Source of the DNA: an uncultured cyanobacterium
GTDB lineage: Bacteria; Cyanobacteriota; Cyanobacteriia; Cyanobacteriales; CAWUOF01
Length of the DNA: 64,000 nt
Reading direction: 5' to 3'
Assembly (NCBI GenBank): GCA_963744145.1
Contig: CAVUSO010000001.1
Location: 7,424,001 to 7,488,000 of the forward strand
Shown: positions 26,396 to 47,246 of the stretch, in pieces
Layout: each line of letters begins with the position of its first letter
How positions within the stretch are numbered: the stretch's first letter is position 1
The notes under the pieces: model-generated
What the model saw: only the letters and a program-made list of their open reading frames with translations
The model's database searches: none
Told to the model about the DNA's origin: nothing
Translations under genes and position numbers: made by a program

Positions 26396-28639
26396 CCCAC
26401 ATTCCGCACCCTGAACTGTCACAATTCGTAATTACTGAAATAAACCTCTATCAAAGCTGAAATTTTGGCCCACTATCGTCAAAAAAGAGGTTTTTAAACC
26501 TTGATGGTCAGGTCATCAATCTCTAGTTTATTAATAATTATTAGCAATAAGTAGAAAATGAGGATTTCGGCCCGTTTTTTCAATAAATTTTGGTGTTGAC
26601 TAGCTCTCTTAACTCAGTTTTGTTAGTTAATAACTGAACAATCTCTAGTTAAGATAGGTTAATTCTTAGCTCTTAATTAAATTCAAGAACTCATTCAAGC
26701 TAAATATATTTATGCTATATTAGCAAGAGGATTAAGTGATAAATTTATAGTAGCGCCGACAATCTTCTGGTAGCAGGGTCAGGATAAATTCACGTTCATT
26801 ACTCCAATTAGATACTTGTTGTTGTTGTTGAAATGTGACCAGGTGAATTGCTTGAAAGCATTGAAATATCCATTTAGCTGTTGGACGGTCTGTTGCTTTC
26901 CCTAACTGATTTTTTATGGTTGATTTTGCTGCTGATAAAGCGGCTCGTATTTGTCTTTGTGCTAGGGTATAAACCAGTAAACCTAGCCCCATAATTGCTG
27001 CTAATGATTCGATGCGTTCGGGACTTTTCAGATAAACACTATCTGCAAAAAATGTGGGATCTTTAAGAAAACCAAATCCTCTTTCACAGGATTGCTGTGC
27101 CTTATACTCAGTCAGCATTGCCTCATTACTAATTTCGCTTTCTGCTAAAACGTTCGTCGCAATTATGAATCTACCTGCACTGTTAGTTTCTTGTTCAATT
27201 TGGCTTTTATCCTCGGTAAAACTGCCGAGAATTTGATAACACTTTTTTTGACTTTTATCTAATTTATCTGGTCTGATTTCCCTGACTTCTTTTGGTTCAA
27301 TTTGATGATATTTAAAGGATTTCGATAGGTGAGTTAATGCCTTGACTGCATCAGCTTTACAGGCAAATCTATCTTGGGATAATTTTCCTAATTCGCTGTT
27401 CAGTTTGGTGGCGGATTTACTAATTTTCTGTGATAATTTCCGTAAATCTGATTCTCTTCTTTCTTGACTTTCCACAACTAGCCATCTTTGCTTTATCCCA
27501 CCATAAGTCTGCTCTTTTGCCGCCCATGAATATCCAACTAATTTGCTTTTAGTAAATTCTGAATCTGGCAAATTTGCTACTAATTCTTGGGCTAATTTTA
27601 TCTTTAACGGTACTCGGCTTAACCACTTAATTTCCGACATTAATTTGAGATTATCTTCTGTATATAAGGCACAATCAGCTACGATTAAACTATCTACTTT
27701 TATTTGATTTTTATAATCAATTGCTATCTTCGCAAAGCATGATGAGTCGGCTTGATTTCCTGACGCTGCTTTTAAAAATATTGGGATATCTCCATCCCCG
27801 GTACATACTAATTCTATTAAAAATTGTTTTAAATCAGGTCTATGGTCACGGGAATAACCGTAATTTATTTTGATTGGTTGTCGCGATTTTATTTGGGGCT
27901 CTCCTTGGTCTGACAATTCTGGCTGACTAAATATTATCTCTGGTAATTCTTGATGATATTCCCCATGTACGTGAATTGACGATGAGTCTAGATGGGATGT
28001 ATTTAAAGATATATCAAACTTTTTAACTGCATTTAAAGTAATTGCTAAAAATATTGTATCCAGTCCTTTACTATATAGTTTATCCATCACTCTTCCCAGT
28101 TTATCGTCATTTAAATATTCGGGCTTTACCCCGGCTCCTATTAAATGTTCACAGGGAATTGATTCAAAAAATTTCGGAAACATATATAATGGTTTAGAAA
28201 TAAATCCTAACCCATTGATAATCATTGCTTTAACTGCTTGTCCAGCAGTAACTTTTTCTCCCGATTCTATCCCGATTAAATTATTAATTATTTCTACTAT
28301 TCCAATCGTATCTACTATTCCTGCTACTAACCCCAGATGGTCGATATTCTGAATTTTAATATCGTTTATGTCTACCATAGTTACCCAATTTAACGAGCCA
28401 ATTTTTGGTTCAATTATCGCATTTTTAGGCTCGATTGCAATTAATTTTTTTACTCTTTCATTTTCCGGACTTCTGCTACGGTTAATCTCTCAATAACCCA
28501 GGGCCTCTTTCTGCTCATAAATCTAGTTTAATAAAATTTATTCTCATTAATCTCATTTATGATCTTTTTGAGCCAACTTTCTTCGTCCCCAATTTTTACC
28601 CTTTTATTAAGATGTGCCAGTGAGGGTGCGGAATGTGGG
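26396..28639 (-). mobile_element. IS1634-family insertion sequence
   Basis: 17-bp terminal inverted repeat CCCACATTCCGCACCCT; 6-bp target duplication TTATAT (26390-26395 and 28640-28645). Confidence 0.92.
26732..28378 (-). CDS. IS1634-family DDE transposase
   Basis: DHLGLVAG, LNDDKLGR, HLDSSS, GYSRDHRPDLKQ, ERGFGFLKDP. Confidence 0.92.
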   Translation of the reverse strand: MVDINDIKIQNIDHLGLVAGIVDTIGIVEIINNLIGIESGEKVTAGQAVKAMIINGLGFISKPLYMFPKFFESIPCEHLIGAGVKPEYLNDDKLGRVMDKLYSKGLDTIFLAITLNAVKKFDISLNTSHLDSSSIHVHGEYHQELPEIIFSQPELSDQGEPQIKSRQPIKINYGYSRDHRPDLKQFLIELVCTGDGDIPIFLKAASGNQADSSCFAKIAIDYKNQIKVDSLIVADCALYTEDNLKLMSEIKWLSRVPLKIKLAQELVANLPDSEFTKSKLVGYSWAAKEQTYGGIKQRWLVVESQERRESDLRKLSQKISKSATKLNSELGKLSQDRFACKADAVKALTHLSKSFKYHQIEPKEVREIRPDKLDKSQKKCYQILGSFTEDKSQIEQETNSAGRFIIATNVLAESEISNEAMLTEYKAQQSCERGFGFLKDPTFFADSVYLKSPERIESLAAIMGLGLLVYTLAQRQIRAALSAAKSTIKNQLGKATDRPTAKWIFQCFQAIHLVTFQQQQQVSNWSNEREFILTLLPEDCRRYYKFIT

Positions 28640-29457
28640 TTATATCCGAATGCTTCGCCCTTTTTCTGCGCCGAGCTCCCCAAAAATTCTGAACTGAATG
28701 GATTGTAATATCTAGTTGATCTGTTGGCTACATAGATGGCAGGGCAAAGCATTTCGGTAATATTATTCTTCGTTTCAGCAATTATTTATGCGCCGAAATG
28801 CTTTGCCCCTACGAGGAACTGAACTGGATTGGTATTTAATCAGCGATCGCTTACCGATCAATGGGGTGTAGGGGCGAAGCATTCGGGCGATAATTGAACA
28901 ATCAAACCAGCAATATTAGATCCGAATGCTTCGCCCTTCTTCTGCGCCAGCTCCCCAAAAATTCTGAACTGAATGGATTGTAATATCTAGTTGATCTGTT
29001 GGCTACATAGATGGCAGGGCAAAGCATTTCGGTAATATTATCCTTCGCTTCAGCAATTATTTATGCGCCGAAATGCTTTGCCCCTACGAGGAACTGAACT
29101 GGATTGGTATTTAATCAGCGATCGGTTGCCGATCAATGGGGTGTAGGGGCGAAGCATTCGGGCGATAATTGAACAATCAAACCAGCAATATTAGATCCGA
29201 ATGCTTCGCCCTTCTTCTGCGCCAGCTCCCCAAAAATTCTGAACTGAATGGATTGTAATATCTAGTTGATCTGTTGGCTACATAGATGGCAGGGCAAAGC
29301 ATTTCGGTAATATTATCCTTCGCTTCAGCAATCATTGACGCGCCGAAATGCTTTGCCCCTACGAGGAACTGAACTGGATTGGTATTTAATCAGCGATCGG
29401 TTGCCGATCAATAGGGTGTAGGGGCGAAGCATTCGGGCGATAATTGAACAATCAAAC

Positions 29458-29481
29458 TTTACCCTGAGCGTAGTCGAAGGG
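29458..29481 (-). repeat. 24-nt small dispersed repeat inserted in a hairpin loop (other copies at 29621-29644 in opposite orientation and 30060-30083)
   Basis: TTTACCCTGAGCGTAGTCGAAGGG is present in units 5 and 7 and absent at the same site in units 3 and 4. Confidence 0.85.
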
Positions 29482-30220
29482 CAGCAATATTAGATCCGAA
29501 TGCTTCGCCCTTCTTCTGCGCCGAGCTCCCCAAAAATTCTGAACTGAATGGATTGTAATATCTAGTTGATCTGTTGGCTACATAGATGGCAGGGCAAAGC
29601 ATTTCGGTAATATTATTCTTCCCTTCGACTACGCTCAGGGTAAACGCTTCAGCAATTATTTATTCGCCGAAATGCTTTGCCCCTACGAGGAACTGAACTG
29701 GATTGATATTTAATCAGCGATCGCTAGCAGATCAATCGGGTGTAGGGGCGAAGCATTCGGGCGATAATTTACCGCTTCAACCAGTAATATTAGATCCGAA
29801 TGCTTCGCCCTTCTTCTGCGCCGAAATCCCCAAAAAATTCTTAACTGAATGGATTGTAATATCTAGTTGATCTGTTGGTTGCATAGATGGTGAGGGCAAA
29901 GCATTTCGGTAATATTATCCTTCGCTTTAGCAATTATTTATGCGCCGAAATGCTTTGCCCCTACAAGGAACTGAACTGGATTGGTATTTAATCAGCGATC
30001 GCTTGCCGATCAATCGGATGTAGGGGCGAAGCATTCGGGCGACAATTGAACAATCAAACTTTACCCTGAGCGTAGTCGAAGGGCAGCAATATTATATCCG
30101 AATGCTTCGCCCTTCTTCTGTGCCGAAATCCCCAAAAATATTATAGTTTAAGCAACTAATGAAATGCTGCAAACCTCATTCCTACGTCATCCAATTTTTC
30201 TGAAAAATATTGTTGATCTT

Positions 30221-31640
30221 GGTTCTACCGAACTATCTATGTAAAAATATTAGTTATTAGCTCGTAAAACTCCCAATTAAATAATTAATTTATATCTGAA
30301 AAATTACTGACGTGATTGACTTTGGGCGATTTTTATGTTTAAATTGGATTAGAATAATTAAGTACATCTAAGTAAAAATTGACAGCTATGGCATCTTCTT
30401 CTCAACTTCATCTAATGACTTCATTGCTGAATAGTCAAGAATTTAAAGTAGTAGATTATCAATTTCAAGAAGGGATCGGGATATTTTTACGACTAGAAAA
30501 ACGAGAATTAAAAGTTAAATGTCCTTGTTGTGAAAGCCTCACAGATAAATTACATCAAAATCATTGGTATGTAGTAAGAGATTTGGCTTTTGGTGAACAA
30601 CAAATATATTTAAAAGTCAATCGTCGTCAAATGAGATGTGACCAATGTGGCCACAAATTTAGTGAAGAGTTAAATTTAGTGAAGAAGAAAAGAAATTATA
30701 CTGAAAGATTAAGAAATAAAATTATTAAGGAAGTTTTGTCAAGTGACATAAAAAACGTGGCGATACGGTACGGATTTAGCGAGCAAGAAGTAGAGACAAT
30801 GTTAAAAGAATTAGGCGCAGAATTAATGAAAAAAAAGCCCGAAAATTTACAGCGGTTAGGAATCGATGAAATTGCCGTAGTAAAAGGGCAAAAAAATTAT
30901 TATGTAGTGTTAATAGATCTTGACCAAGGAATTGTATTAGGAATTATCGAAAACCGCAAAAAAGCCGAGATAGAAAAATACCTAGAAGCTTGGGGAGAAG
31001 AGGTTTTGGGGCAAATCCAAGAAGTAAGTATTGACCTCTGGCAAATGTATAAAAATATCGCCGAAAAATTGATACCTCAAGCAGAAGTAATCGCCGATAG
31101 ATTTCATGTAATGAAGCAAGTACAGGATGAACTAGATCAAGAAAGAAGGAAAACGAAAAGAACCGCAGAGCCATTGAAAAATAACCAAAAAAAAGAGCAA
31201 ATATTAGGCGGATTAACTAAGAGTAAATATGTCTTACTTAAAAATGAGAAAGATTTAAATGATGATGAATCTCAACGACTTAAATTAGTTAAAAAAGTTG
31301 CTCCAAAATTAGGAAAAATGCATGAGCTCAAAGAAAAATTTAGAAATATTTATGAGTCCAGTAAAGATTGGGTAGAAGGAATATTTAATTTCGCTGATTG
31401 GTTAAAAGAAGCTCAAGATTATTTCCCTCATAGTTGTGGGACAATTATCCGATGGATTGGAGAAATTATTGCCTATTTCGATCACCGAACTACTCAAGGA
31501 GTAGTCGAAGGAATTAATAATAAGTTAAAATTGATTAAAAGGCGTGGCTATGGCTTTAGGAATTTTGATAATTTTCAGCTCAGAAGTATTTTAACTTGGC
31601 ATTTTGCTAGTTAGTTTTACATAGATAGTTCGGTAGAACC
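30221..31640 (+). mobile_element. ISL3-family insertion sequence
   Basis: 26-bp perfect inverted repeat GGTTCTACCGAACTATCTATGTAAAA; 8-bp target duplication TTGATCTT (30213-30220 and 31641-31648). Confidence 0.93.
30379..31614 (+). CDS. ISL3-family transposase
   Basis: CPCC zinc finger, LGIDE, DRFHV, EGINNKLKLIKRRGYGFRNF. Confidence 0.93.
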   Translation: MTAMASSSQLHLMTSLLNSQEFKVVDYQFQEGIGIFLRLEKRELKVKCPCCESLTDKLHQNHWYVVRDLAFGEQQIYLKVNRRQMRCDQCGHKFSEELNLVKKKRNYTERLRNKIIKEVLSSDIKNVAIRYGFSEQEVETMLKELGAELMKKKPENLQRLGIDEIAVVKGQKNYYVVLIDLDQGIVLGIIENRKKAEIEKYLEAWGEEVLGQIQEVSIDLWQMYKNIAEKLIPQAEVIADRFHVMKQVQDELDQERRKTKRTAEPLKNNQKKEQILGGLTKSKYVLLKNEKDLNDDESQRLKLVKKVAPKLGKMHELKEKFRNIYESSKDWVEGIFNFADWLKEAQDYFPHSCGTIIRWIGEIIAYFDHRTTQGVVEGINNKLKLIKRRGYGFRNFDNFQLRSILTWHFAS

Positions 31641-31664
31641 TTGATCTTTTAAAAAAGTTATATG

Positions 31665-33098
31665 TTAGAGTTTAGAGAACAGAAAAGAAGACCCCGATGC
31701 TCCACTCTCAAGGTTGCACCCCCGTCCATTCACCCCCGCAGCCGCACAACACGGGAAGTGACCTAGCGGAGCAGCGCTATTAAAAGTGAGGTCAGAGTAG
31801 TTCAACCAGTTTCCTCCTTTTCTCCAGCCGACTTGATCTGCTAGTTTAACATAAGTATCCCAATCATAACTATCTAGCTTACCACCCAATTTGAGCCAGA
31901 TTTTCTTCTGGACTGAAAACCCAAATTTGTCATTAGAATACTTTAACCACAACTGGTCAATGAGCCGCAGTTCATTTTTCGGAAAATTACGACAGTTATT
32001 TGCTGTTAAGGATCTCTCTTCTTCCCTGTTCATAATTTTTAACATGACTCGAGTAGTTTCTTGATCTGCTTTTTGCCATTTTTTGTCTGATAATAATTGC
32101 TCCAGTTTTCTCAAATCAGCTCTAGATGTAACTAAATTAACTTGGGGTGCTGGAGCAAAATTAACTTGGGGTGCTGGAGCAGGTGTAGGAGAAGTAGGTT
32201 TTGGAGAAGAGCTAGTAGAATGAGGTATTTTAACATCCCCAACTTGGAGTGATGGAGCAGGTGTAGGAACCGTCATAGCATTTAACACCATTGTTGCTGT
32301 CCATCTTTTTTCTCGATCTTTTTCTAATGCTCCCTGGATGATCTCCCGATATCTTTGACTAATTTTTGACCATTCTATGCTCGGTTCTTCCTGAATTACT
32401 TTTACCATCAATTGCTGTTCTGTCTCCCCGATAAAGGGCAACTTTCCTGTCAGCATTTCTGCCATGATTACTCCTAATGACCATATATCCCATCCTGTTG
32501 CTACTACTCCCTCATAAGCTTCCGGTGGTGCGTATTCACTTGTCCCTTTTCTACTACTTGTCCTTGCTGATTTCCCAGAATTGATTGACCTCATTAACCC
32601 AAAATCTGCTAACTTCCAATGCTCCCCAACTTTAATCACATTTGCTGGTTTTACATCCCGATGTACTCGACCCTCTGGTTCTTGATGTAAATAAACTAAT
32701 GCAGCACCGATTTCCTTGACGATTTTCTCTACTTCCTCCTCTCCTAATGCCCCTGGCTTTTGCTCTAGAAGTTTTGCTAGTGTTTCTGCTCCTAATTCCA
32801 TCACTAAGTACAACATTTCTCCGATTTTAATTTGAGTTAACCCTGGCGCATAACAACGAATTAAATGTAGATGATCTAACTTTACTGCTGCAATTAATTC
32901 TTCCAGTTGTTTCTCCCGATTTTTCTGATCTCCTTCGGGTGAAATTAGCTTTACTGCTACTTGACGAATTAGCCGATCGCCTACGACTTCATCGGCACGG
33001 AAAACTGCCCCATATCCGCCCACTCCTAAGAGTTCTTTCAGGTAATATTTTCCGTCAATACATTCTGCCTCTAACAGTCGCCACAATTGTTCATTCAT
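31665..33098 (-). CDS. Ser/Thr protein kinase with one C-terminal GUN4 domain (copy A)
   Basis: LGVGGYG, VAVK, HRDVKPAN, DFG, YAPPE; GUN4 motifs WQKADQET, IDQLWLKYS..KFGFSVQKKIW, GHFP. The ATG at 33098 overlaps the PP2C remnant's stop. Confidence 0.9.
   Translation of the reverse strand: MNEQLWRLLEAECIDGKYYLKELLGVGGYGAVFRADEVVGDRLIRQVAVKLISPEGDQKNREKQLEELIAAVKLDHLHLIRCYAPGLTQIKIGEMLYLVMELGAETLAKLLEQKPGALGEEEVEKIVKEIGAALVYLHQEPEGRVHRDVKPANVIKVGEHWKLADFGLMRSINSGKSARTSSRKGTSEYAPPEAYEGVVATGWDIWSLGVIMAEMLTGKLPFIGETEQQLMVKVIQEEPSIEWSKISQRYREIIQGALEKDREKRWTATMVLNAMTVPTPAPSLQVGDVKIPHSTSSSPKPTSPTPAPAPQVNFAPAPQVNLVTSRADLRKLEQLLSDKKWQKADQETTRVMLKIMNREEERSLTANNCRNFPKNELRLIDQLWLKYSNDKFGFSVQKKIWLKLGGKLDSYDWDTYVKLADQVGWRKGGNWLNYSDLTFNSAAPLGHFPCCAAAGVNGRGCNLESGASGSSFLFSKL
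31688..31751 (-). other. Hypervariable GUN4 C-terminal segment, copy A (64 nt)
   Basis: Lies between the GHFP codons and the constant CTTTTCT anchor; unalignable with the four sister segments. Confidence 0.8.
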
Positions 33099-33339
33099 CA
33101 CCTTCAATTCCTGCTTGAACTTGAATAGCAATCACCGTAATATTATCATTACCACCATGTTCTAAAGCTGTTTCTAGACAAGTTTGAGTCAGGTTTTCCA
33201 TTGAGTTTTCCCACTGTTGCACTAAATCTAGTAACTCATCGTCTCTGACTTCACCATGTAATCCATCGCTATATAATATTAAAACATCTCTACCAAGATA
33301 ATTCCGATAACTTTTTATGTTCATCCCATTTTGGATCAA
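33091..33339 (-). pseudogene. PP2C-family phosphatase, C-terminal remnant
   Basis: DVLILYSDGL...GGNDNITVI; N-terminal half is absent. Confidence 0.8.
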
Positions 33340-33392
33340 CTGTCTGACACAATAGGATCATATCAATCAATCAAAACTCGCTAGCAAGCACT

Positions 33393-33713
33393 ATGACTAC
33401 TCTATTAATGCTTCAACCCTCATCTCTAATCTCCTCTGGTGTTAAAATGAGGCAATTCGGTAATATTTATTTATTCAAGTTTACCGATGAACTCCAGTTT
33501 TGCTTTGAAGAACTTTTAGAAAAGAAAAAAGCTCATATACTCACTCCTGACGAAGAAGCTGAATATATGGGAATATCAGAACTAGAGCAGATTTTTACCC
33601 TAATTAACGCTCAACTTGCAGCCAAAAGCCAATGGTGTCCAACTCAACTCGAAGACTTGTACGACGACGAGCCCGATACCTCTGTGAATACTGTCATTCC
33701 CCCGAATATCTAA
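33393..33713 (+). CDS. Hypothetical protein, antitoxin-like, upstream of an HNH remnant
   Basis: ELLEKKK..LTPDEEAEY pattern; overlaps the HNH fragment. Confidence 0.55.
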   Translation: MTTLLMLQPSSLISSGVKMRQFGNIYLFKFTDELQFCFEELLEKKKAHILTPDEEAEYMGISELEQIFTLINAQLAAKSQWCPTQLEDLYDDEPDTSVNTVIPPNI

Positions 33714-33790
33714 GCCCAGACCGTTTCACAATACTACGTTGCGATCGCCATGACTACCCTGTATCATACCTAGCATCAGCAACGATATAA
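33632..33790 (+). pseudogene. Truncated HNH endonuclease
   Basis: Manual translation MVSNSTRRLVRRRARYLCEYCHSPEYLSPDRFTI, then loses similarity just before the expected DH motif. Confidence 0.65.
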
Positions 33791-33983
33791 TTAGTATTGA
33801 AGATTTAATTAACCGATCGCCATTCATAAAATTCATCAAATATACGGGTTAACTTACTCCTACCTTAACCCAATATTTTTTTAGCGATCGCTATGATTAA
33901 TAGTTCAGGCGATCGCTTCTCCCTAGTCAAACTTATTTAACCAACATATTTAGCGATCGCATTTAACTGTTATCTTTACCAGC

Positions 33984-34110
33984 GCGATCGCTTGCCGATC
34001 AATCGGGTGTAGGGGCGAAGCATTCGGGCGATAATTTATCACTAAAAACCGTTAATATTATATCCGAATGCTTCGCCCTTCTTCTTCTGTGCCAGCTCCC
34101 CAAAAATATC
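33984..34110. repeat. Half unit (hairpin A) of the REP-like repeat downstream of kinase copy B
   Basis: GTAGGGGCGAAGCATTCGG at 34009; same context as array unit 7, which lies downstream of copy A. Confidence 0.85.
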
Positions 34111-34204
34111 ATAGTTTAAGCAACTAATGAAATGCTGCAAACCTCATTCCTACGTCATCCAATTTTTCTGAAAAATATTCTTGATCTTTTAGAAAAGCTA
34201 TATG

Positions 34205-37200
34205 TTAGAGTCTAGAGAAGAGAAAAGAGATTCCCCAAACACCACCCCACACCCACAGAACCCCCCCGACAGCCCGCCCCTCCCACACTGGGAGGTGTCC
34301 CATAGGAGCAGAGATATTAAAAGTGAAGTTAGAGTAGCTGCTCAACCAGTTTCCTCCTTTTCTCCAGCCGACTTCATCTCCTAATTTAACATAAGTATCG
34401 GAATCATAACTATCTAGCTTCCCACCCAATTTGAGCCAGATTTTCTTCTGGACTGAAAACCCAAATTTGTCGTTAGAATACTTTAACCACAACTGGTCAA
34501 TCATCCGCAGTTCATTTTTCGGAAAATTACGACAGTTATCTGCTGTTAACCATCCCTCTTTTTCCCTGTTCATAATTTTACACATAACTCGAACAGTTTC
34601 TTGATCTGCTTCTTGCCATTTTTTGTCTAATAATAATTGATCAAGTTTCCTCAAATCAGCTCTAGATGTAACTAAATTTTCTTGGGGTGATGGAGCAGGT
34701 GTAGGAGAAGTAGGTTTTGGAGGAGAGCTAGTAGAATGAGGTATTTTAACATCCCCAACTTGGGGTGATAGAGCAGGTGTAGGAACCATGTTAGAGTCTA
34801 GAGAAGAGAAAAGAGACAATCCAAACCCCCACCCAACCCACACCCCCAAACCAAACACACCACCAGCCGGGAGGTGTCCCGCAGGAGCAGAGATATTAAA
34901 AGTGAAGTTAGAGTAGCTGCTCAACCAGTTTCCTCCTTTTCTCCAGCCGACTTCATCTCCTATTTTAACATAAGTATCGTAATCATAATCTAGCTTCCCA
35001 CCCAATTTGAGCCAGATTTTCTTCTGGACTGAAAACCCAAATTTGTCATTAGAATACTTTAACCACAACTGGTCAATCATCCGCAGTTCATTTTTCGGAA
35101 AATTACGACAGTCATCTGGTGTTAACCATCTCTCTTTTTCCCTGTTCATAATTTTACACATAACTCGAGCAGTTTCTTGATCTGCTTCTTGCCATTTTTT
35201 GTCTGATAATAATTGATCAAGTTTCCTCAAATCAGCTCTAGATGTAACTAAATTTTCTTGGGGTGATGGAGCAAAATTAACTTGGGGTGATGGAGCAGGT
35301 GTAGGAGAAGTAGGTTTTGGAGAAGAGCTAGTAGAATGAGGTATTTTAACATCCCCAACTTGGGGTGATGGAGCAGGTGTAGGAACCATGTTAGAGTCTA
35401 GAGAAGAGAAAAGAAGACAATGACCATTCAGTTCTCCCACCAAAAATCCCCCACCCCCACCCCCAGGTAAGTGACCTAGGGGAGCATAGATATTAAAAGT
35501 GAGGTCAGAGTAGTTTAACCAGTTTCCTCCTTTTCTCCAACCGACTTCATCCCCTAATTTAACATAAGTATCGGAATCATAACTATCTAGCTTCCCACCC
35601 AATTTGAGCCAGATTTTCTTCTGGACTGAAAACCCAAATTTGTCATTAGAATACTTTAACCACAACTGGTCAATCATCCGCAGTTCATTTTTCGGAAAAT
35701 TACGACAGTTATCTGCTGTTAACCATCCCTCTTTTTCCCTGTTCATAATTTTACACATAACTCGATTAGTTTCTTGATCTGCTTCTTGCCATTTTTTGTC
35801 TGATAATAATTGATCAAGTTTCCTCAAATCAGCTCTAGATGTAACTAAATTTTCTTGGGGTGATGGAGCAAAATTAACTTGGGGTGATGGAGCAGGTGTA
35901 GGAGAAGTAGGTTTTGGAGGAGAGCTAGTAGAATGAGGTATTTTAACATCCCCAACTTGGGGTGATGGAGCAGGTGTAGGAACCATATTAGAGTCTAGAG
36001 AAGATAAAAGAGACCCATCCCCCAAACCCACCCACCAACACCCCACCACAACCCAACCAAATAACGGGAGGTGTCCCCTACGAGCAGAGATATTAAAAGT
36101 GAGGTCAGAGTAGTTCAACCAGCTTCCTCCTTTTCTCCAGCCGACTTCATCCCCTAATTTAACATAAGTATTTGAATCATAACTATCTAACTTCCCACCC
36201 AATTTGAGCCAGATTTTCTTCTGGACTGAAAACCCAAATTTGTCATTAGAATACTTTAACCACAACTGGTCAATCATCCGCAGTTCATTTTTCGGAAAAT
36301 TACGACAGTTATCTTCTGTTAAGTATCCCTCTTTTTCCCTGGTCATAACTTTCAACATGACTTGAGTAGTTTCTTGATCTGCTTCTTGCCATTTTTTGTC
36401 TGATAATAATTGATCAAGTTTCCTCAAATCAGCTCTAGATGTAACTAAATTTTCTTGGGGTGATGGAGCAAAATTAACTTGGGGTGATGGAGGAGGTGTA
36501 AGAGAAATAGGTTTTGGATGAGAGCTAATCGGAGCAGGTGTTTTCGTCATAGCATTTAACACCATTGTTGCTGTCCATCTTTTTTCTCGATCTTTTTCTA
36601 ATGCTCCCTGGATGATCTCCCGATATCTTTGACTAATTTTTGACCATTCTATGCTCGGTTCTTCCTGAATTACTTTTACCATCAATTGCTGTTCTGTCTC
36701 CCCGATAAAGGGCAACTTTCCTGTCAGCATTTCTGCCATGATTACTCCTAATGACCATATATCCCATCCTGTTGCTACTACTCCCTCATAAGCTTCCGGT
36801 GGCGCGTATTCACTTGTCCCTTTTCTACTACTTGTCCTTGCTGATTTCCCAGAATTGATTGACCTCATTAACCCAAAATCTGCTAACTTCCAATACTCCC
36901 CAACTTTAATCACATTTGCTGGTTTTACATCCCGATGTACTTGACCCTCTGGTTCTTGATGTAAATAAACTAATGCAGCACCGATTTCCTTGACGATTTT
37001 CTCTACTTCCTCCTCTCCTAATGCCCCTGGCTTTTGCTCTAGAAGTTTTGCTAGTGTTTCTGCTCCTAATTCCATCACTAAGTACAACATTTCTCCGATT
37101 TTAATTTGAGTTAACCCTGGCGCATAACAACGAATTAAATGTGGATGATCTAACTTTACTGCTGCAATTAATTCTTCCAGTTGTTTCTCCCGATTTTTCT

Positions 37201-37372
37201 GATCTCCTTCGGGTGAAATTAGCTTTACTGCTACTTGACGAATTAGCCGATCGCCTACGACTTCATCGGCACGGAAAACTGCCCCATATCCGCCCACTCC
37301 TAAGAGTTCTTTCAGGTAATATTTTCCGTCAATACATTCTGCCTCTAACAGTCGCCACAATTGTTCATTCAT
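34205..37372 (-). CDS. Ser/Thr protein kinase with four tandem GUN4 domains (copy B)
   Basis: Kinase domain differs from copy A at 3 residues by eye; four GUN4 repeats with anchor spacing 597, 600 and 586 nt. Confidence 0.9.
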   Translation of the reverse strand: MNEQLWRLLEAECIDGKYYLKELLGVGGYGAVFRADEVVGDRLIRQVAVKLISPEGDQKNREKQLEELIAAVKLDHPHLIRCYAPGLTQIKIGEMLYLVMELGAETLAKLLEQKPGALGEEEVEKIVKEIGAALVYLHQEPEGQVHRDVKPANVIKVGEYWKLADFGLMRSINSGKSARTSSRKGTSEYAPPEAYEGVVATGWDIWSLGVIMAEMLTGKLPFIGETEQQLMVKVIQEEPSIEWSKISQRYREIIQGALEKDREKRWTATMVLNAMTKTPAPISSHPKPISLTPPPSPQVNFAPSPQENLVTSRADLRKLDQLLSDKKWQEADQETTQVMLKVMTREKEGYLTEDNCRNFPKNELRMIDQLWLKYSNDKFGFSVQKKIWLKLGGKLDSYDSNTYVKLGDEVGWRKGGSWLNYSDLTFNISARRGHLPLFGWVVVGCWWVGLGDGSLLSSLDSNMVPTPAPSPQVGDVKIPHSTSSPPKPTSPTPAPSPQVNFAPSPQENLVTSRADLRKLDQLLSDKKWQEADQETNRVMCKIMNREKEGWLTADNCRNFPKNELRMIDQLWLKYSNDKFGFSVQKKIWLKLGGKLDSYDSDTYVKLGDEVGWRKGGNWLNYSDLTFNIYAPLGHLPGGGGGGFLVGELNGHCLLFSSLDSNMVPTPAPSPQVGDVKIPHSTSSSPKPTSPTPAPSPQVNFAPSPQENLVTSRADLRKLDQLLSDKKWQEADQETARVMCKIMNREKERWLTPDDCRNFPKNELRMIDQLWLKYSNDKFGFSVQKKIWLKLGGKLDYDYDTYVKIGDEVGWRKGGNWLSSYSNFTFNISAPAGHLPAGGVFGLGVWVGWGFGLSLFSSLDSNMVPTPALSPQVGDVKIPHSTSSPPKPTSPTPAPSPQENLVTSRADLRKLDQLLLDKKWQEADQETVRVMCKIMNREKEGWLTADNCRNFPKNELRMIDQLWLKYSNDKFGFSVQKKIWLKLGGKLDSYDSDTYVKLGDEVGWRKGGNWLSSYSNFTFNISAPMGHLPVWEGRAVGGVLWVWGGVWGISFLFSRL
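34228..34288 (-). other. Hypervariable segment, GUN4 repeat 4 (61 nt, terminal)
   Basis: Encodes VWEGRAVGGVLWVWGGVWGI; 53 of 61 nt are G/T on the coding strand. Confidence 0.8.
34814..34867 (-). other. Hypervariable segment, GUN4 repeat 3 (54 nt)
   Basis: Encodes AGGVFGLGVWVGWGFGLS; 51 of 54 nt are G/T. Confidence 0.8.
35414..35464 (-). other. Hypervariable segment, GUN4 repeat 2 (51 nt)
   Basis: Encodes GGGGGGFLVGELNGHCL; 41 of 51 nt are G/T. Confidence 0.8.
36011..36064 (-). other. Hypervariable segment, GUN4 repeat 1 (54 nt)
   Basis: Encodes LFGWVVVGCWWVGLGDGS; 51 of 54 nt are G/T. Confidence 0.8.
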
Positions 37373-37689
37373 CACCTTCAATTCCTGCTTGAACTTGAAT
37401 AGCAATCACCGTAATATTATCATTACCACCATGTTCTAAAGCTGTTTCTAGACAAGTTTGGCTCATATTTTTTAAGCGGTTCTGAAGGTAAGAGCTGATT
37501 TAATAATTCTCGAAAAGTATTAATGGCAATTTCTGATGCTCTTTTTCTTCCCTTACGTCCCTCCATTCCATCCGCAACTACTGCTAGTAAAGCAGATTGA
37601 GCTGACCAGAATTCTAACAAATGATTGTCTTCATTGACTGGACGAACTTTACCCGTATCAGTTTTAGAATTGTAGATTAGTTGTCTCAT
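37365..37689 (-). pseudogene. PP2C-family phosphatase with large internal deletion
   Basis: TDTGKVRPVNED...VADGM N-terminus joined out of frame near 37460 to the GGNDNITVI C-terminus. Confidence 0.8.
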
Positions 37690-37927
37690 ATTAGAATTTG
37701 CTCGATTACATATTTTCACCTATCTTCATGCGATTCTGCAAGAACATTTTTGTTCCACAACCCTGACAAAACTTAGATTGAGGGGAGTTTTCCTAGGGAC
37801 AATTAGGGTTAAGACATTTAATAAGGTTACTCATAATTTTGGAAACCTGATGTGCTAAGATCAATTAGGTAATCCGATCATATCAGAAAAATTAATGGTG
37901 TTGCTGATGATCGGCAGACACCTCGAA

Positions 37928-38834
37928 TAATCAGGTAATTCCTGGTTTAGCGATTCCCCAACAAACCATATTCAAAGGCGATCGCGAAAATTTAGCGATC
38001 GCTGCGGCTAGTATTGTTGCTAAGGTATGGCGTGATGATTTGATTGTGCGTTTGGCGGTTAAATATCCTGAATATGACTTGACAAACAATAAAGGTTATG
38101 GTAGTGCTAAACATATATTAGCTTTACAACGTTATGGTGCTTCGGCACAACATCGTCTTTCGTTTCGCCCTTGTCGTGTCAGTCATGAAATTTAAAATTG
38201 TTACGGCTGTATTTGGGCTAATCTGTTTGAGCTGGGCTGATCGAGCGATCGCTCAATATCGGACCGATCGTCCAACTTTTTATCAAGATGGACAACAACA
38301 ATTAGAAAGAGAAATTAATCGTTTAAACCAAAAAAAACCAGATAATTTGCTGACAATTGACAGTGAACCGATTCATTGGCAAGAATTTAAGTTTAAACCA
38401 GGTAATTTTGCTGTTTTAATCCCGAATACTCTGATCGATCAACAAGATACTTTAAGTACGACTGAGGGCACTCTAGATTTAAAAGAGTTTAGCACACAAA
38501 CAAATTCTTTACGGTTAGTAGTAGCTTATTCAGACTATCTATCAACGGCTAATTTAAGCAACTCCGAGGTAGTTTTAGCGAATGTGCGCGATCGACTTGT
38601 TGATAAGTTAGGGGTTAAATTAGTTAGGGATAGTTCGATTACACTAGGTGATTATCCTGGTAAAGAACTAAAGTTGCAAAGTTCAACTGAGCAGATCATA
38701 TTTAGGCTATTTTTAGTTAAACAGCGTCTATATATTGTCGGAGTTACTCAGAAAAACAACGTTGATAGTTCAAAAGATATGGCCAAGTTTTTAGCTTCGT
38801 TTCGATTAATAAAATAAATCAAATCAATTCTAAT
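37928..38834 (+). repeat. Direct repeat copy 2 (contains an rnhB 3' fragment to 38195)
   Basis: Near-identical to 25099..26005. Confidence 0.9.
38185..38817 (+). CDS. Exported hypothetical protein, paralog of 25356..25988
   Basis: Same length and highly similar sequence. Confidence 0.7.
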   Translation: MKFKIVTAVFGLICLSWADRAIAQYRTDRPTFYQDGQQQLEREINRLNQKKPDNLLTIDSEPIHWQEFKFKPGNFAVLIPNTLIDQQDTLSTTEGTLDLKEFSTQTNSLRLVVAYSDYLSTANLSNSEVVLANVRDRLVDKLGVKLVRDSSITLGDYPGKELKLQSSTEQIIFRLFLVKQRLYIVGVTQKNNVDSSKDMAKFLASFRLIK

Positions 38835-38926: not shown

Positions 38927-39670
38927 ATGAAGCTAGACTATTTACCAACCGAAAAATTTTTGGCATATCCACATCAGTTTCTCGGTAAAGTTTTAGTCGT
39001 AACTTCTTGTACTGGGGAGAAACGTTACAAACCTGAAAATCAATTGACAATAGAGGATTTTAAAGAAAAAGCTCGATTCCAACAACAAGAAGCACAACTT
39101 ACTCAATTTGCTTATCCTGCAAGTCAGATGTATACAGGGACACAACACCTACGAGCAATGGAAGGAGTTAAATTACTGCGTCAGTTCCTTGGACAGGAAG
39201 TTGTAGATGTGGTGATTTTGTCTGCGGGCTATGGTTTAATTTCTGAGAACAAAACTATTGTACCATATCAAGTCACCTTCAACACAATGAAAGGTTACGA
39301 GATCGATGAGTGGGCAAAGTTTCTGGGAATACACCAAGCTTTTGAACAAGCTATTGTTGGTTATGATTTGGTGTTTATATTGCTGGGAGAAAATTATTTG
39401 CGATCGCTTTGTCTCCCTGTTGAAACTTACGATAAGCAAACTTTTATTTTTTTAGCATCGCATCGAGGTGCCAATTATATTCGAGATTTAGCTGCAAAAG
39501 CTTATGTCCTACATCTTGCCAACGCCGATGCTAAACATTACCATTATGGATTAGTAGGTTTGAAAGGATTTTTGTTCAAAAGGTTTGCTGAATGCGTTAC
39601 AAGAGAATGGACGCTACTAAAAAAGATTTATGACCAACCAGAATTATTTGTCCAGATTGTTAGATCCTGA
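38927..39670 (+). CDS. DpdA-associated protein (DUF6884/YaaA-like)
   Basis: VVTSCTGEK, ASQMYTG, ILSAGYGLI..PY motifs; overlaps the dpdA-like gene. Confidence 0.6.
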   Translation: MKLDYLPTEKFLAYPHQFLGKVLVVTSCTGEKRYKPENQLTIEDFKEKARFQQQEAQLTQFAYPASQMYTGTQHLRAMEGVKLLRQFLGQEVVDVVILSAGYGLISENKTIVPYQVTFNTMKGYEIDEWAKFLGIHQAFEQAIVGYDLVFILLGENYLRSLCLPVETYDKQTFIFLASHRGANYIRDLAAKAYVLHLANADAKHYHYGLVGLKGFLFKRFAECVTREWTLLKKIYDQPELFVQIVRS

Positions 39671-41045
39671 GTCTGTTCAGCTAGAGATACCATTAGAACT
39701 GCCAAAAGTCAAGCTTTCTCTTAAATCGGTTAAGAATCCAAGAATTGGTAAGTCTGAAGACAAAGAACTGATTCCTATTCCTGATGTCCCGATCGCTCCT
39801 AATTTAGATTTGGGAATGCAATATTTTATTCCTGAATGGGACGATCGCGTAGACCCTCACTATAATTTTTTGGATGATGCTCTGACACCGGGTCGAGACT
39901 CTTACAATGATGATTTATATGCTCATCAGATTTATAACAGTCCTAACTATAATGGAATTTTAGTTTCTAAGGGAATTGTCGAGCGTAGTAAAAAAAAGAA
40001 AGCACTAATTGAAAAAATAGGAATTCACAAATTTATCCGATTTTCAGGTTCAGTAATGGGAGATTGTGGAGCTTTTGGATATATCAATCAAGAGGTTCCT
40101 CCCTATAATACAGAAGAAATTCTAGAATACTATGAACGCATCGGATTTGACTATGGAGTGAGTATAGATCACCTGATTGTTGGATCATTTGCTGAATCCG
40201 GAGTGAGGGAAAAAAGATACAATTTAACCATAAAGAATGCAGAAGATTTTATCCATAAGCATCGAGCGATCGGATATAAATTCACTCCCATTGGTGCAGT
40301 TCAAGGGTGGGACCCAAAATCTTATGCTAATGCGGTCAAAGACTATATTAAAATGGGCTATAAATATATTGCATTGGGGGGACTAGCTAGGACTCCTAGC
40401 AAAGAGATTCTAAAAATATTAGAAAGTATTCACCCACATTTAACTTCCCAAACTCAGATGCACCTGTTTGGGGTAGGACGACTCAATGCTGTTCCAGCTT
40501 TCCGTCATTTAGGAGTAACCAGTTTTGATTCTGCAAGTCCATTGCGTAAAGCTTGGCTGGATTCAGCCGCAAATTACCATACTTTAGATGGTAAAACCTA
40601 TGCAGCTATTCGCATTCCTAAAGTAGATGGCTATGGGGTGCGTATTAAGCGATTGTTGGAAGCAGATGTATCAGATCGGGCAACCCTAAAAAGTCTTGAG
40701 GAAGATGCACTTACTAAACTGCGGGAGTTTAATTTAGGTCTTGTTACTTTAGAGTCAACCCTCTCATCACTACTTGCTTTAGACGAGTTACTAGAATTAC
40801 CTCGTGATGGTCAGGTAAACTCTCAAGAAAAAGCCAGACGCTTACATAGACACACGCAAATGTATCAGGAGCTTTTGGAGGAACAGCCTTGGAAGAAATG
40901 TGATTGTGTAATCTGTCAAGAAATTGGGATTGAAGTTGTAATTTTCCGAGGAAATGATCGTAACCGTAGACGTGGCTTCCATAATACCTATATTTTCCAT
41001 AAGCGCTTTAATGCCTTACTTAAAAATGAAAAATTTTTGAACTAA
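39630..41045 (+). CDS. dpdA: DpdA-like tRNA-guanine transglycosylase paralog (DNA 7-deazaguanine insertion)
   Basis: YFIPEWDDRVDP, MGDCGAF, SIDH, AVQGW, ALGGL, HLFG, SFDSAS, CDCVIC and RNRRRGFHN zinc-site motifs. Confidence 0.78.
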   Translation: MTNQNYLSRLLDPESVQLEIPLELPKVKLSLKSVKNPRIGKSEDKELIPIPDVPIAPNLDLGMQYFIPEWDDRVDPHYNFLDDALTPGRDSYNDDLYAHQIYNSPNYNGILVSKGIVERSKKKKALIEKIGIHKFIRFSGSVMGDCGAFGYINQEVPPYNTEEILEYYERIGFDYGVSIDHLIVGSFAESGVREKRYNLTIKNAEDFIHKHRAIGYKFTPIGAVQGWDPKSYANAVKDYIKMGYKYIALGGLARTPSKEILKILESIHPHLTSQTQMHLFGVGRLNAVPAFRHLGVTSFDSASPLRKAWLDSAANYHTLDGKTYAAIRIPKVDGYGVRIKRLLEADVSDRATLKSLEEDALTKLREFNLGLVTLESTLSSLLALDELLELPRDGQVNSQEKARRLHRHTQMYQELLEEQPWKKCDCVICQEIGIEVVIFRGNDRNRRRGFHNTYIFHKRFNALLKNEKFLN

Positions 41046-41055
41046 AGAGGATTCA

Positions 41056-41636
41056 GTGGAAAAGAAATTTTTGCCGCTCTTCTCTATGGACCACGCGGGT
41101 CTGTTAAGAAAGTTGAAGGATATAGAAGGAGATTACGGGATTCTAGCTCCCCTTTCCTGCCCAAAAAATCTTCTTAAAGATATTCGCAATACAGGTAAAC
41201 TTTTCTTTATTGACAGTGGTGTTTTTGAAAATCAAGCTCCTCCCTGGTACTACCAACTTCATTGTGAGTTCCTTCAGCAGCGATGGGTGCGAGAATTACG
41301 TTTGACTTCGGAACAACAATTAAGACAGAGGGTAAAAGACTATTTGAGTTTATGTGACATGATATTGGCTATCAGTGCATTGCTTTGGGAGGTTTATTAA
41401 AAGCCGACACTACTATGCCAACTGGTTTGAGGTTTGGTTTATCCGCTCAGGAACTAGATGAATTACTTACATGGGCTAGACCTGAATTGGTTTTAGGAGG
41501 TCTGGCTTTAAGCCGTATAGAAGTCCTCAAGAAACACAATGTTTGGGCTGATTCTACCAATTGGCTCTGGTGGGATGCTCGTTATGATCGGCAAAGGTTT
41601 GGACATCGGAATGTTTTTCAGGAAATTTTAGGGTGA
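41056..41636 (+). pseudogene. Fragmented second TGT-barrel-like gene
   Basis: FIDSG in the first ORF; GGL and ADSTNW in the second, different frame. Confidence 0.5.
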
Positions 41637-41678
41637 ATATTGTCATTACCCGTCAACAACAGTAGTATAACCATTCAA

Positions 41679-42773
41679 TTAGATAAGACCATTTACTGGG
41701 GCAACACCAACAAATTCACGCAGTGTCTTATGACACAAATCTACGGTTGTCTTTGTATTGGAAATAATCGGTTCTCCTTTAGCACCAACTTGTGTTACTC
41801 CTCTTTCTCGCCATCAAGCATTCTCGCGCTGCCACTCTATCTTTCGGAGCCGATATAACCATTGAACAATATCTTCTTCAGGAATAGCTTCTAGATAGAA
41901 TTCATGAGCCAGCATTCCTAATGCTTGGAATACAATAGCTGTTACTGCAAGTGAATTCTGTCTTTGCTTAGTGCGTTCCTCTTTACTTTTAATGCTCCAC
42001 GGGTCGTTAGGTAGAACACTCGCGGTTGCTGCCCAGAATGTGGTTGCCCAGCTAGTTAGTGGCTCCAAACCCTCTTTAGATTTTAAATAAGGGAACATAT
42101 GTCGGGTAGCTGTAACTAGGGTAGAAAATGTCAGCAATTTGGAATTATGTTTACCTAAGCCGTTTTCAACCATCTCTACATTGTTACGGAACTGAGGGAC
42201 TCGCTTAATCAAGTCTTTGGCAATTAAAACCACAGGCGATCGCTGATCGAAAGCGTGAGAGAGCGACACGCTTGGTCTTTGAACTAGAAGGTTTTGATCG
42301 CGGAAAGCTTGACGTTCCTCCTCCAATGACAGTCCAGCATATAAAAGTACCCCAATTTCAAGTTGAGAAAGGATTGGTAGATATTCCCACTGTTCAACTT
42401 GGATGTCTTTTAGTGCTTGACGGATACCAAAACATCTATGCTGACCGTCTGTCAAACCCAGAGTAACCGAGTGGTAAGGAAGAAAGATGCTGCCATTGCT
42501 ATAAGTCGGTGATAGTTGAACATTTACACAAATCGGTGGGAAAAACGTAGTACCAACTTGGTAAGTCTCCAGAATATACCGGGCGATCGCTTTAACTCTC
42601 GTAGCGTTGGGTTTGCGTTGAGCAAAATCTGGCAAATCTGACTCATTGGGAACATAAAGGCGATCGTCATTTAGCAGTCGGGCGACATCGCCAAAAAACA
42701 GAGAGCCAACATAACTTTGATGTTCACTCTGTGGTCCCCGACAAACAGGTACAGCTCGAATTACAAGTTCCAT
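41679..42773 (-). pseudogene. DGQHR/DndB-family (DpdB-like) protein with in-frame TGA at 41814-41816
   Basis: AQR, FFPPI, DGQHR, QAFRDQN motifs; the frame continues for 44 codons after the TGA (WRERGVTQ...NGLI*). Confidence 0.75.
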
Positions 42774-47027: not shown

Positions 47028-47246
47028 CTAGCCCCCCAGAAGACCTACGCCGTGAACTAAACCGTTGCGAAACAATGATTGAGAATCCCCATTAGTTTAT
47101 TTAAACCTTTATTCTGGATCGCGATCGCTTTTCAATCTGTAACTTACAACACCTTGACAAATCAAACGGGACTTACTAGAAAAAATCGGTAGTGCCTGCA
47201 AGATAGTGCAGGTACAAAAAATCAATAGTTTCGGAGTCTTCAACAA

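Follow-up and report, generated by a model that had tools for sequence, protein, structure and literature searches.

A tail element with a stop in every frame at the 3′ ends of GUN4-like sensor genes of cyanobacteria

Why should a gene end carry one stop codon in each reading frame, and why should the two stops that are not in use persist? The question is raised by two minus-strand genes, A and B, in a stretch of 64,000 nucleotides (nt) from an uncultured cyanobacterium of the order Cyanobacteriales (NCBI GenBank assembly GCA_963744145.1, contig CAVUSO010000001.1, positions 7,424,001 to 7,488,000), the whole of which is called the window below. Both genes encode a Ser/Thr kinase followed by GUN4-like units, and at both 3′ ends a variable segment is followed by a cassette of three stops. 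An earlier model-made reading of this DNA, the original prediction, had drawn from the two copies that the gene end tolerates any insert length and that its tip is repeatedly rewritten. The analysis presented here indicates that the stops are probably the end of a conserved, frame-independent tail module of GUN4-like sensors across cyanobacteria, by which the length of the preceding loop is set free.

The stop cassette and the tail element it belongs to

Re-reading of the minus strand in both copies places all three stops exactly where they had been reported (Table 1). They lie 7 nt apart, one per frame, and the middle stop is in frame in both genes. The two unused stops differ as TAA in gene A and TAG in gene B and are still stops, and the tails derived from the three frames of copy B (SFLFSRL, LFSSLDSNI and FSLL) are correct. 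The cassette does lie behind the variable tip at both gene ends, but it is not a special terminal device, as it also closes internal units. The 27-nt string TCTTTTCTCTTCTCTAGACTCTAACAT, with 0–2 mismatches, ends the three internal GUN4 units of gene B as well, where it is translated as LFSSLDSNM... in the frame of the third stop and leads into a proline-rich linker and the next unit; translation continues there because the third stop is replaced by ATGGTT. Unit alignment gives the same order for all five window units, namely GH(L/F)P, an unalignable G/T-rich segment of 50–63 nt and then this string. The cassette belongs to the repeat unit, and also to an element found throughout the family whose part upstream of the stops is likewise read in three frames.

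With up to 5 mismatches, the 27-nt motif has nine sites in the source genome, none of them on the plus strand: five in the window (two terminal, three internal), three further terminal copies (C1:416465, 2922999 and 7499153) and one fragment (2896305). In this subfamily, which carries a short variant of the element, stop 2 closes four of the five terminal copies (ISFLFSRL or SSFLFSKL) and stop 1 closes copy 7499153 (GCLFSLL), the three internal units standing in the stop-3 frame. Of 60 other genomes of the order, G041, a member of another family, is the only one with the motif at up to 3 mismatches; its stops read TAG, TAG and TAA, and its two copies use stop 2 and stop 3 (LFSSLDSST), respectively. 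Taken together, the terminal copies of the source genome and of G041 thus use all three frames of the very same cassette, and the identity of the stops changes while the stops themselves remain. Since the motif itself led only to G041, the wider family was reached through protein-based locus searches.

The fragment (locus L039, C1:2896305-2896331) lies outside the window and consists of a kinase fragment (HRDVKP codons), 9 nt and then the tail motif with 2 mismatches. It resembles a deletion from the kinase catalytic loop to the exact insert/tail boundary and hints that this boundary is a preferred breakpoint.

A chance control shows why homologs were needed. Among the 5079 open reading frames (ORFs) of at least 150 amino acids (aa) in the source genome, 15.9% close all frames within 17 nt of their stop, and the exact 7/7 spacing occurs in 95 (1.9%), GUN4 genes included. 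All-frame closure is not rare, so the two window copies alone could not settle the matter; what raises the cassette above chance is its conservation in homologs.

In translation, 43 GUN4 ends of the source genome are nearly all built alike: GHLP leads into a segment enriched in Gly, Trp, Val, Leu, Phe and Cys, which gives way to one of a few tail motifs. A further 80 loci were fetched by unit alignment from named cyanobacterial genomes (Nostoc, Microcoleus, Microcystis, Xenococcus, Planktothrix and Fischerella among them), and in many of these the first stops of the three frames are exactly 7 nt apart. A single DNA element, read in three frames, yields the tails SLLSRRDL, LFSRVETCKL and SSLASRLVNCNI. 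Its DNA, TCTCTTCTCTCGCGTCGAGACTTGTAAACTGTAACATATAAGG, which is found exactly in locus L092, is about 45 nt long and is made of a pyrimidine run, a CG-rich core and three tandem heptamers with one stop each; every reading of it has an [L/F]-x-S-R motif and a TAA of its own. The window cassette is this element with its core shortened.

In all, 122 ends were examined (79 loci with a recognisable GHLP and 43 matches of the source genome), 77 of which align without gaps to the element at the thresholds used. A stop is present at positions 1, 2 and 3 in 71, 71 and 66 of these, and all three stops are present in 58. The information content is ∼1.5 bits in the nine stop columns, ∼0.96 bits in the eight spacer columns and ∼1.4 bits in the upstream part that is read in three frames; conservation fades past about column 50 and falls below 0.5 bits after about column 65. 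A nhmmer search of the source genome gave 25 hits with E≤0.032, all just 3′ of a GUN4 match (within ∼300 nt), and four others with E≥0.37. The canonical GUN4 gene of the same genome has no cassette match (score 21). In a metagenome sample, 80 loci yielded 58 analysable ends, 39 of which carry the cassette; all three stops are present in 31 of the 39, and the composition of the inserts is the same as in the main sample.

All three stops are in use. In the main form, stops 1, 2 and 3 terminate 32, 21 and 18 of the 77 ends, the remaining six meeting another stop first or having lost a stop, and with the short variant added the figures become 34, 28 and 22 of 84 classified ends. In the metagenome sample (n=39) the corresponding counts are 10, 14 and 6 for the main form, 0, 3 and 2 for the short form and 4 others. 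Strict patterns applied to 120 database proteins, relatives of the GUN4 part of gene A, recover 12 stop-1, 13 stop-2 and 8 stop-3 tails of the main form and 7, 13 and 1 of the short variant; 66 of the 120 fall outside the patterns, and many of these are visible variants of the same tails. The original prediction had proposed to check whether all three frames are used across alleles, and they are: in the window subfamily, in G041, in database proteins and family-wide.

It had also asked whether off-frame stops are better conserved than their neighbours, and this too is what the homologs show. Of 142 unused stops, 125 persist: 50 of the 57 that lie off-frame inside coding sequence and 75 of the 85 in the 3′ untranslated part. 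The stop columns exceed the spacer columns in information as given above. Where the A positions of the stops vary, they favour G (43 against 11 C or T), in contrast to six other mostly-A columns (25 against 68; Fisher 6e-10); for the stop-1 users alone the figures are 124:4 against 96:32 (3e-7), the tests treating related sequences as independent, which overstates the P values and leaves the direction clear.

Frame use carries no phylogenetic signal. On a maximum likelihood tree of the GUN4 domain (quick search, 122 columns, many unresolved forks), the frame state needs 39 changes, compared with 39.0±2.5 for shuffled labels, and the starred branches alone force 8–10 frame changes per state. 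Supported sister pairs with near-identical domains and identical tail DNA differ in frame and have unrelated inserts, for example L111/L112 in Microcystis and L062/L068 in Xenococcus, as well as the Microcoleus L053 group versus L065 and copies 7499205 versus 2923110 of the source genome. Frame changes are therefore frequent relative to domain divergence. In the short variant, Arg or Lys occurs only in the stop-2 frame, which is also the commonest frame among terminal copies.

Loss of the in-frame stop fuses tandem units, as in gene B, L149, L097 and copy 330267 of the source genome. Proteins P0085 and P0061 and locus L052 show two tail motifs in a row (e.g. SLFSRT...TLFSRTDL), an arrangement which suggests that the tail element itself can be duplicated, the older copy being absorbed into the insert.

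Variable inserts in the place of a ligand loop

Canonical GUN4 (PDB 1Y6I, 1Z3X, 4XKB) shares with the GUN4-like units the fold, the GHLP motif and a related ending (SLLNHPAW versus SLLSHQEL or SLLSRRDL), and sequence search aligns the unit to solved GUN4 structures up to GHLP. In passages of one paper on Synechocystis GUN4, porphyrin lies over Leu210 of the α6/α7 loop and Arg214 and Arg217 hold its carboxylates (PMC1084334); passages of another describe an LxNxLR motif right after GHLP as necessary for bilin binding, along with paralogs that do not have it (PMC10156173). The canonical GUN4 of the source genome reads GHLP, LTNQLRGVRVIN and SLLNHPAW. Where canonical GUN4 has the LxNxLR/Arg214–Arg217 stretch, GUN4-like sensors have the variable insert: all five window units lack that stretch and pass from GH(L/F)P directly into an unalignable G/T-rich insert. 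The insert therefore takes the place of the ligand-contacting loop, and the tail in the stop-1 frame corresponds to the canonical ending.

A predicted structure of L111, a relative in the stop-3 frame and not a window protein, has a mean confidence (predicted local distance difference test, pLDDT) of 75.4 and superposes on solved GUN4 (1z3x/1z3y) with a Z score of 18.3 and a root-mean-square deviation of 1.8 Å over 132 aligned residues, residues 1–155 falling on residues 97–234, up to the C-terminus of the chain. In this model the insert is of low confidence and the tail is predicted to form a helix at residues 146–152. The model for the stop-1 frame (L112 with 18 relatives, pLDDT 56.7) is too poor to judge. 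Among database proteins, GUN4-like domains stand at the sensor position of kinase, NACHT, caspase, TIR and trypsin fusions.

The inserts themselves are of unusual composition. In 85 inserts (5749 nt), G makes up 42.6%, T 34.0%, A 13.4% and C 9.9% (77% G+T), alike at all three codon positions. Glycine is encoded by GGG in 46% of cases, versus 15% in the long ORFs of the source genome, and leucine by TTG in 58% versus 16%, a rough comparison in that inserts from many genomes are set against the ORFs of one; synonymous choice in the inserts follows the nucleotide bias. Lengths range from 24 to 288 nt with a median of 58 and are distributed 40/25/20 over the three classes modulo 3. All three frames are open in 32 of the 85 inserts, G runs of at least 7 occur in 12 (insert B4 of the window holds a G7 run, and the copy at C1:416465 a (GGT)5 run), and a canonical G-quadruplex motif is found in 25, compared with 10.9±2.5 in shuffles. 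Of the 54 strongest G/T tracts of the source genome, 11 lie directly behind a GUN4 domain, and most of the others are periodic Val-Gly-type repeats.

Tandem duplications are visible inside inserts. In Xenococcus sp. PCC 7305, the flanks of the paralogs L062 and L068 are identical, and each insert is pieced together from short copies of the preceding 100 nt, a stretch coding for GHLP being among the duplicated parts. Such a patchwork is a signature of templated insertion rather than of G/T-rich filling.

In the window subfamily, mean identity over the 198 nt preceding the insert is 91.8%; that of the inserts (50–87 nt) is 57.6%, compared with 56.2±5.8% after shuffling. In Microcoleus, one insert is the same save for point changes in six genomes and seven metagenome contigs, an alternative allele occurs in five metagenome contigs, with a related form in L065, and a G7 run is kept in five of six orthologous genomes with no indel. 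Inserts are replaced on the time scale of paralogs and species, and the genomes and metagenome contigs compared show no sign of ongoing hypervariation. The tolerance of any insert length proposed at the outset is thus supported, all lengths modulo 3 and all three frames being found with the stops retained; the proposed rewriting of the tip holds on evolutionary time, between species and paralogs, but not as an ongoing process, given the Microcoleus insert. As regards the window genes themselves, no near-identical relatives were found in the metagenome contigs, the best match having 64% identity. Only one soil-metagenome run matched, with 40% of the words of 33900-34700; its contigs on 32300-34800 are fragmentary, mixed between paralogs and of low depth over the insert, and cannot show minor variants.

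A small second variable spot lies 2–3 codons before GH(L/F)P (AP-x-GH), at 31764-31772, at 34301-34309 and at the matching sites of the internal units. It is different in all five units (alignment columns ∼499–506), and the surrounding DNA is nearly identical.

Explanations and known systems

Several known kinds of element were considered for the cassette and its insert, and most were rejected. The target of a diversity-generating retroelement (DGR) is ruled out by the lack of a local reverse transcriptase and of a template, by the varying insert length and by an insert identity no higher than after shuffling. No RVT_1 domain occurs among the 15 ORFs of the window between 22.6 and 42.8 kb, and the three RVT_1 matches of the genome (3.19, 5.01 and 5.09 Mb) do not lie beside a GUN4 gene. 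The search for a template repeat found none: all 25 tail-element hits are at GUN4 ends, and all nine motif sites are gene ends (internal units included) or the one fragment. A 16-mer search for insert donors likewise returned no donor copy, only isolated 16–18-mers in 9 of 24 inserts; a 12-mer search is uninformative, such matches being expected by chance. A free mobile element, of the repetitive extragenic palindromic (REP) or miniature inverted-repeat transposable element type, is excluded by the confinement of all 25 nhmmer hits to GUN4 ends. Transposases do not recur downstream: 79 ORFs of at least 70 aa in short flanks (∼600 nt) of 60 loci include 1 Y1_Tnp, 2 HNH and 19 of toxin-antitoxin type, and 0 of 17 Y1_Tnp matches in the source genome lie within 5 kb of a GUN4 end. 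An intrinsic terminator was rejected, as 31400-34400 contains no terminator-like site (2.0±1.4 in shuffles); the family-wide inverted repeat around stops 2 and 3 is AT-rich and has no T run. Rfam applied to 28000-38500 gave only a sub-threshold mir-H11 match (26.9 versus 70 bits) in the repeat hairpin 34011-34080. Of the traits of a contingency locus, a simple-sequence tract in the reading frame is present, but all frames give a tail and a stop and there is no ‘off’ state.

How a frame-independent tail module would work can be followed from its alphabet. No stop can arise in a sequence of G and T alone, and whatever its frame it can code for no residues other than Gly, Val, Trp, Cys, Leu and Phe; one of C and T alone, as in the first part of the tail, is limited to Ser, Leu, Phe and Pro. 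The porphyrin-binding stretch after GHLP would give way to an insert of any length; the C/T run would then code for Ser, Leu and Phe in any frame, the CG-rich core would supply an Arg in each frame, and the heptamers (T-G/A-T-A-A-n-n), 7 not being divisible by 3, give every frame its own stop. Any insert length modulo 3 would in this way lead to a short hydrophobic tail with a Ser-Arg motif and to a stop within ∼13 codons; in the shortened variant of the window the tails would be LFSLL, SFLFSRL or LFSSLDSNI. Indels, duplications and replacements would alter the ligand-facing loop and leave the gene intact, and where units stand in tandem, as in gene B, an insert that breaks the frame would cut the protein short cleanly at the unit concerned. 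The DNA would be conserved because paralogs in one genome use all frames and often switch between them, so that its bases come under three readings and three stops. The element, its use in three frames, the retention of unused stops and the turnover of inserts between near-identical domains are observed directly; selection for frame tolerance would be what keeps the DNA conserved, all three tails are likely to be functional, and the inserts would arise by ordinary slippage, duplication or template switching, with no dedicated enzyme.

Several points weigh against this reading. That the stop-2 and stop-3 tails are made and functional is a prediction from the DNA. The short variant has no Arg in two of the three frames, and four of the five terminal copies of the source genome use the Arg frame, so the frames may be non-equivalent. 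It is also the whole element that is conserved and not only its stops, and a function of the DNA or RNA could keep the stops as a by-product. The G/T bias and the missing codon periodicity fit a generating bias and selection for a frame-robust alphabet equally. Inserts can stay stable for long, and the data bear out tolerance of any length but not frequent rewriting. Finally, homolog counts, like the Fisher tests, take related sequences as independent.

Among the other explanations, the one with most in its favour, unlikely as it is, sees in the element the cis site of a dedicated diversification machine, with a nuclease acting at the insert/tail boundary and a polymerase adding G/T-rich or locally templated DNA, the all-frame tail having evolved so that the products of the machine are always productive. 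Sharp boundaries between conserved flanks and unalignable inserts would fit such a machine, as would the G/T composition free of codon periodicity, the 11 of 54 strong G/T tracts directly behind GUN4 domains, the kinase fragment joined directly to the tail at the same boundary, the Xenococcus inserts patchworked from the preceding 100 nt and the conservation of the DNA element regardless of frame. In kinase, NACHT, caspase and TIR proteins, moreover, GUN4 takes the sensor position, in which, according to passages of two papers, lectins diversified by DGRs also occur (PMC7159879, PMC7517822). However, no candidate enzyme is linked to the genes: none of the three reverse-transcriptase matches of the genome is near a GUN4 gene, only one of the 79 downstream ORFs is a Y1 transposase and two are HNH, and no Y1 match of 17 lies within 5 kb of a GUN4 end. 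There is also no second copy of the flanks to serve as template and no donor copy of 16 nt or more for any insert, inserts are stable across species and samples, and their internal tandem duplications fit ordinary slippage. A second, retroelement-independent route of receptor diversification, in which a putative nuclease/polymerase recognises the 45-nt element, opens a gap between GHLP and tail and fills it with G/T-rich or locally templated DNA of any length, the all-frame tail having co-evolved, is to be held equally doubtful; if real, it would be a bacterial counterpart of junctional diversity of the complementarity-determining region 3 (CDR3) type that does not lose two thirds of its joints.

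It is less probable still that the element is a shared regulatory site in RNA or DNA (heptamer binding sites, a 3′ stability hairpin or a small-RNA target) that co-regulates the paralogs, the stops being incidental. Conservation is indeed frame-independent and continues ∼10–25 nt past the last stop, the T-G/A-T-A-A pattern returns at 7-nt intervals, T29 and T36 being no less conserved than the stops, and an inverted repeat, CTGTAAC/GTTACAG, is paired in 71% of cells compared with 31–41% in slid controls. Yet RNAalifold predicts no pairs on 60 tail elements, the hairpin shows weak covariation (33 of 500 shuffles reach the observed pairing and one pair covaries; a 7-bp hairpin drawn by hand is mostly conserved inverted repeat), Rfam finds nothing above threshold and there is no terminator-like site. 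The stop-preserving variation (43:11 versus 25:68) is not what a binding motif predicts, and whichever frame is read, the upstream half yields an [L/F]-x-S-R tail. Chance in AT-rich 3′ sequence together with the ancestry of two recent paralogs, with no selected role, could draw on the 15.9% of long ORFs closed in all frames and on the kinase parts of genes A and B, which are identical throughout 300 nt; it is contradicted by the homolog survey, in which the same three positions hold stops in 58 of 77 ends, taken from many cyanobacterial genera, and in 31 of 39 ends from metagenomes, every frame has its users, and spacers and flanks vary where stops do not, and it carries next to no weight. The same is to be said of programmed ribosomal frameshifting on pyrimidine or G runs, by which all genes would be expressed with an ancestral stop-1 tail. 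Slippery-looking runs (T4, G7) do occur in or beside inserts and the stop-1 tail resembles the canonical ending SLLNHPAW, but no shift site is conserved at a fixed distance, the inserts are unalignable, +1 and −1 shifts would be needed in similar numbers, and each of the tails in the stop-2 and stop-3 frames has retained its own Arg and stop.

A tail module read in every frame may be related to two known kinds of arrangement, hypervariable sensor tips and off-frame stops that buffer frameshifts. In V(D)J joining, N nucleotides are added, D segments are read in three frames, and two thirds of the joints are non-productive. The CDR3 of antigen receptors resembles the GUN4-like ends in being a ligand-facing loop of variable length, arbitrary modulo 3, and of biased composition between conserved parts, whose downstream part is met in different frames. 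It differs in that its variation is somatic, that of the GUN4-like inserts being germ-line and evolutionary, and in that all three GUN4-like frames are productive, as the downstream part codes and stops in each; a recombinase, signal sequences and a terminal transferase, which belong to the CDR3 system, were not found for the GUN4-like inserts. In contingency loci, homopolymer or short-repeat tracts within a gene slip and so cause phase variation. They share with the GUN4-like genes the G runs and short tandem repeats in coding sequence and a defined outcome of frame change; in the latter, however, a frame change does not switch the gene off, and the Microcoleus G7 comparison shows no heterogeneity. 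Hidden off-frame stops, the ‘ambush’ idea, likewise limit the cost of frame errors.

Reading of one stretch in three frames has a parallel in human SRD5A1, for which indel-resistant triple coding is described in passages of one paper (PMC13352861). Here, unlike in that gene as presented there, the three readings belong to different paralogs or alleles and not to one mRNA, and a fixed cassette with 7-nt spacing is conserved phylum-wide. DGR targets are described, in passages of two papers, as kinase, NACHT or caspase proteins with a C-terminal variable region of the C-type-lectin kind (Vallota-Eastman et al. 2020, PMC7517822; Kaur et al. 2020, PMC7159879). On that description, both systems place a variable stretch at the C-terminus of the sensor in the same cyanobacterial signalling and conflict proteins, followed by conserved DNA and an inverted repeat; the GUN4-like ends differ from DGRs in having no nearby reverse transcriptase, template repeat, adenine-specific pattern or fixed length, and their fold is that of GUN4 and not of a C-type lectin. 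Neither the full-text literature searched nor passages of papers on GUN4 and on conflict systems and DGRs yielded a description of the element or of its use in three frames.

GUN4-like domains occupy the sensor position in hundreds of cyanobacterial signalling and immune-type proteins, and a loop of free length and fast turnover, joined to a gene end that works in every frame, would offer a testable picture of sensor diversification without a retroelement. It would also be a rare natural case of one DNA stretch readable in three frames across a protein family, and a clean system for studying selection for frameshift robustness. On the practical side, gene callers and domain models will misjudge these C-termini, since three ‘different’ tail motifs are one DNA element.

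Genomic setting of the two window genes

The source genome is of 7.7 Mb with 39.4% G+C and holds 54 GUN4 matches. The features around the two gene ends are collected in Table 1. The Pfam profiles matched by gene A are Pkinase, at 2.3e-45, and GUN4, at 1.3e-39 and 136 bits where the cut-off is 29.2. Gene B, whose ORF extends over 34205..37405 and ends at stop 2 of its last cassette, matches GUN4 in four stretches (1.1e-164). The kinase parts of the two genes are 100% identical over 300 nt, which makes the genes recent duplicates.

Table 1. Features at and around the 3′ ends of genes A and B in the window (positions counted from the first letter of the window)
Feature	Position	Strand	Details and basis
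Gene A: Ser/Thr kinase and one GUN4-like unit	31665..33098	−	477 aa from ATG; Pfam, translation, 477-aa database entry
Gene A ORF from TTG 33131	31665..33131	−	488 aa; ends at cassette stop 2
Gene B: Ser/Thr kinase and four tandem GUN4-like units	34205..37372	−	∼600-nt period; ORF list, Pfam
Gene A variable insert	31689..31751	−	63 nt, between GHFP codons and tail; no detectable homology to other inserts
Gene A tail and stop cassette	31658..31688	−	Pyrimidine run, TAA 31674-31672, TAA 31667-31665 (used), TAA 31660-31658
Gene B insert of terminal unit B4	34229..34288	−	60 nt; 87% G+T by hand count
Gene B tail and stop cassette	34198..34228	−	TAG 34214-34212, TAA 34207-34205 (used), TAG 34200-34198
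Internal unit B3	34788..34867	−	Insert 34815-34867 (53 nt); cassette 34788-34814, stop-3 frame
Internal unit B2	35388..35464	−	Insert 35415-35464 (50 nt); cassette 35388-35414, stop-3 frame, read through
Internal unit B1	35985..36064	−	Insert 36012-36064 (53 nt); cassette 35985-36011 (2 mismatches), stop-3 frame, read through
ISL3-family transposase gene of an insertion sequence in the conserved 3′ flank of gene A	30379..31614	+	Pfam DDE_Tnp_ISL3 9.4e-67

The ISL3 insertion sequence (∼30221-31639) interrupts the 3′ flank of gene A ∼20 nt past the third stop, and homology to the flank of gene B resumes beyond it at 30129-30220 (98%). It lies outside the cassette and marks the break in the flank homology of the two genes. 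Upstream of both kinases are fragments of a PP2C phosphatase on the minus strand, a C-terminal piece before gene A (33091-33339) and an N-terminal piece before gene B (37423-37719); an original PP2C phosphatase-kinase pair seems to have been broken in both copies.

In the wider family, the genes directly downstream of L047, L049, L053, L055, L079, L092, L108, L110, L111 and others are often toxin-antitoxin genes. The kinds met are HicA/HicB, ParE, RelB, PIN, DUF433 and DUF2281, which fits defence or accessory islands.

Other features of the window lie apart from the gene ends. A family of REP-like 275-nt repeats forms a tandem array at 28674-30100; further copies lie at 26147-26421 and 45147-45421 and, just downstream of gene B, at 33985-34107. 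Each repeat has a long hairpin whose arms are GGGCGAAGCATTCGG and its complement. A DUF6884 protein, a protein resembling queuine-tRNA-ribosyltransferase (TGT family, 471 aa) and a DndB-like protein are clustered at 38927-42773, in what looks like a candidate DNA-modification or defence cluster. About 12 tandem copies of an 11-nt unit (CTTCGACTACC) occupy the intergenic stretch 47216-47369. Finally, a 300-nt repeat occurs in 97% identical copies at 25099-25398, in the RNase HII region, and at 37928-38227, just upstream of gene B; the ORFs 25305-25988 and 38134-38817 are both of 227 aa, which points to a segmental duplication.

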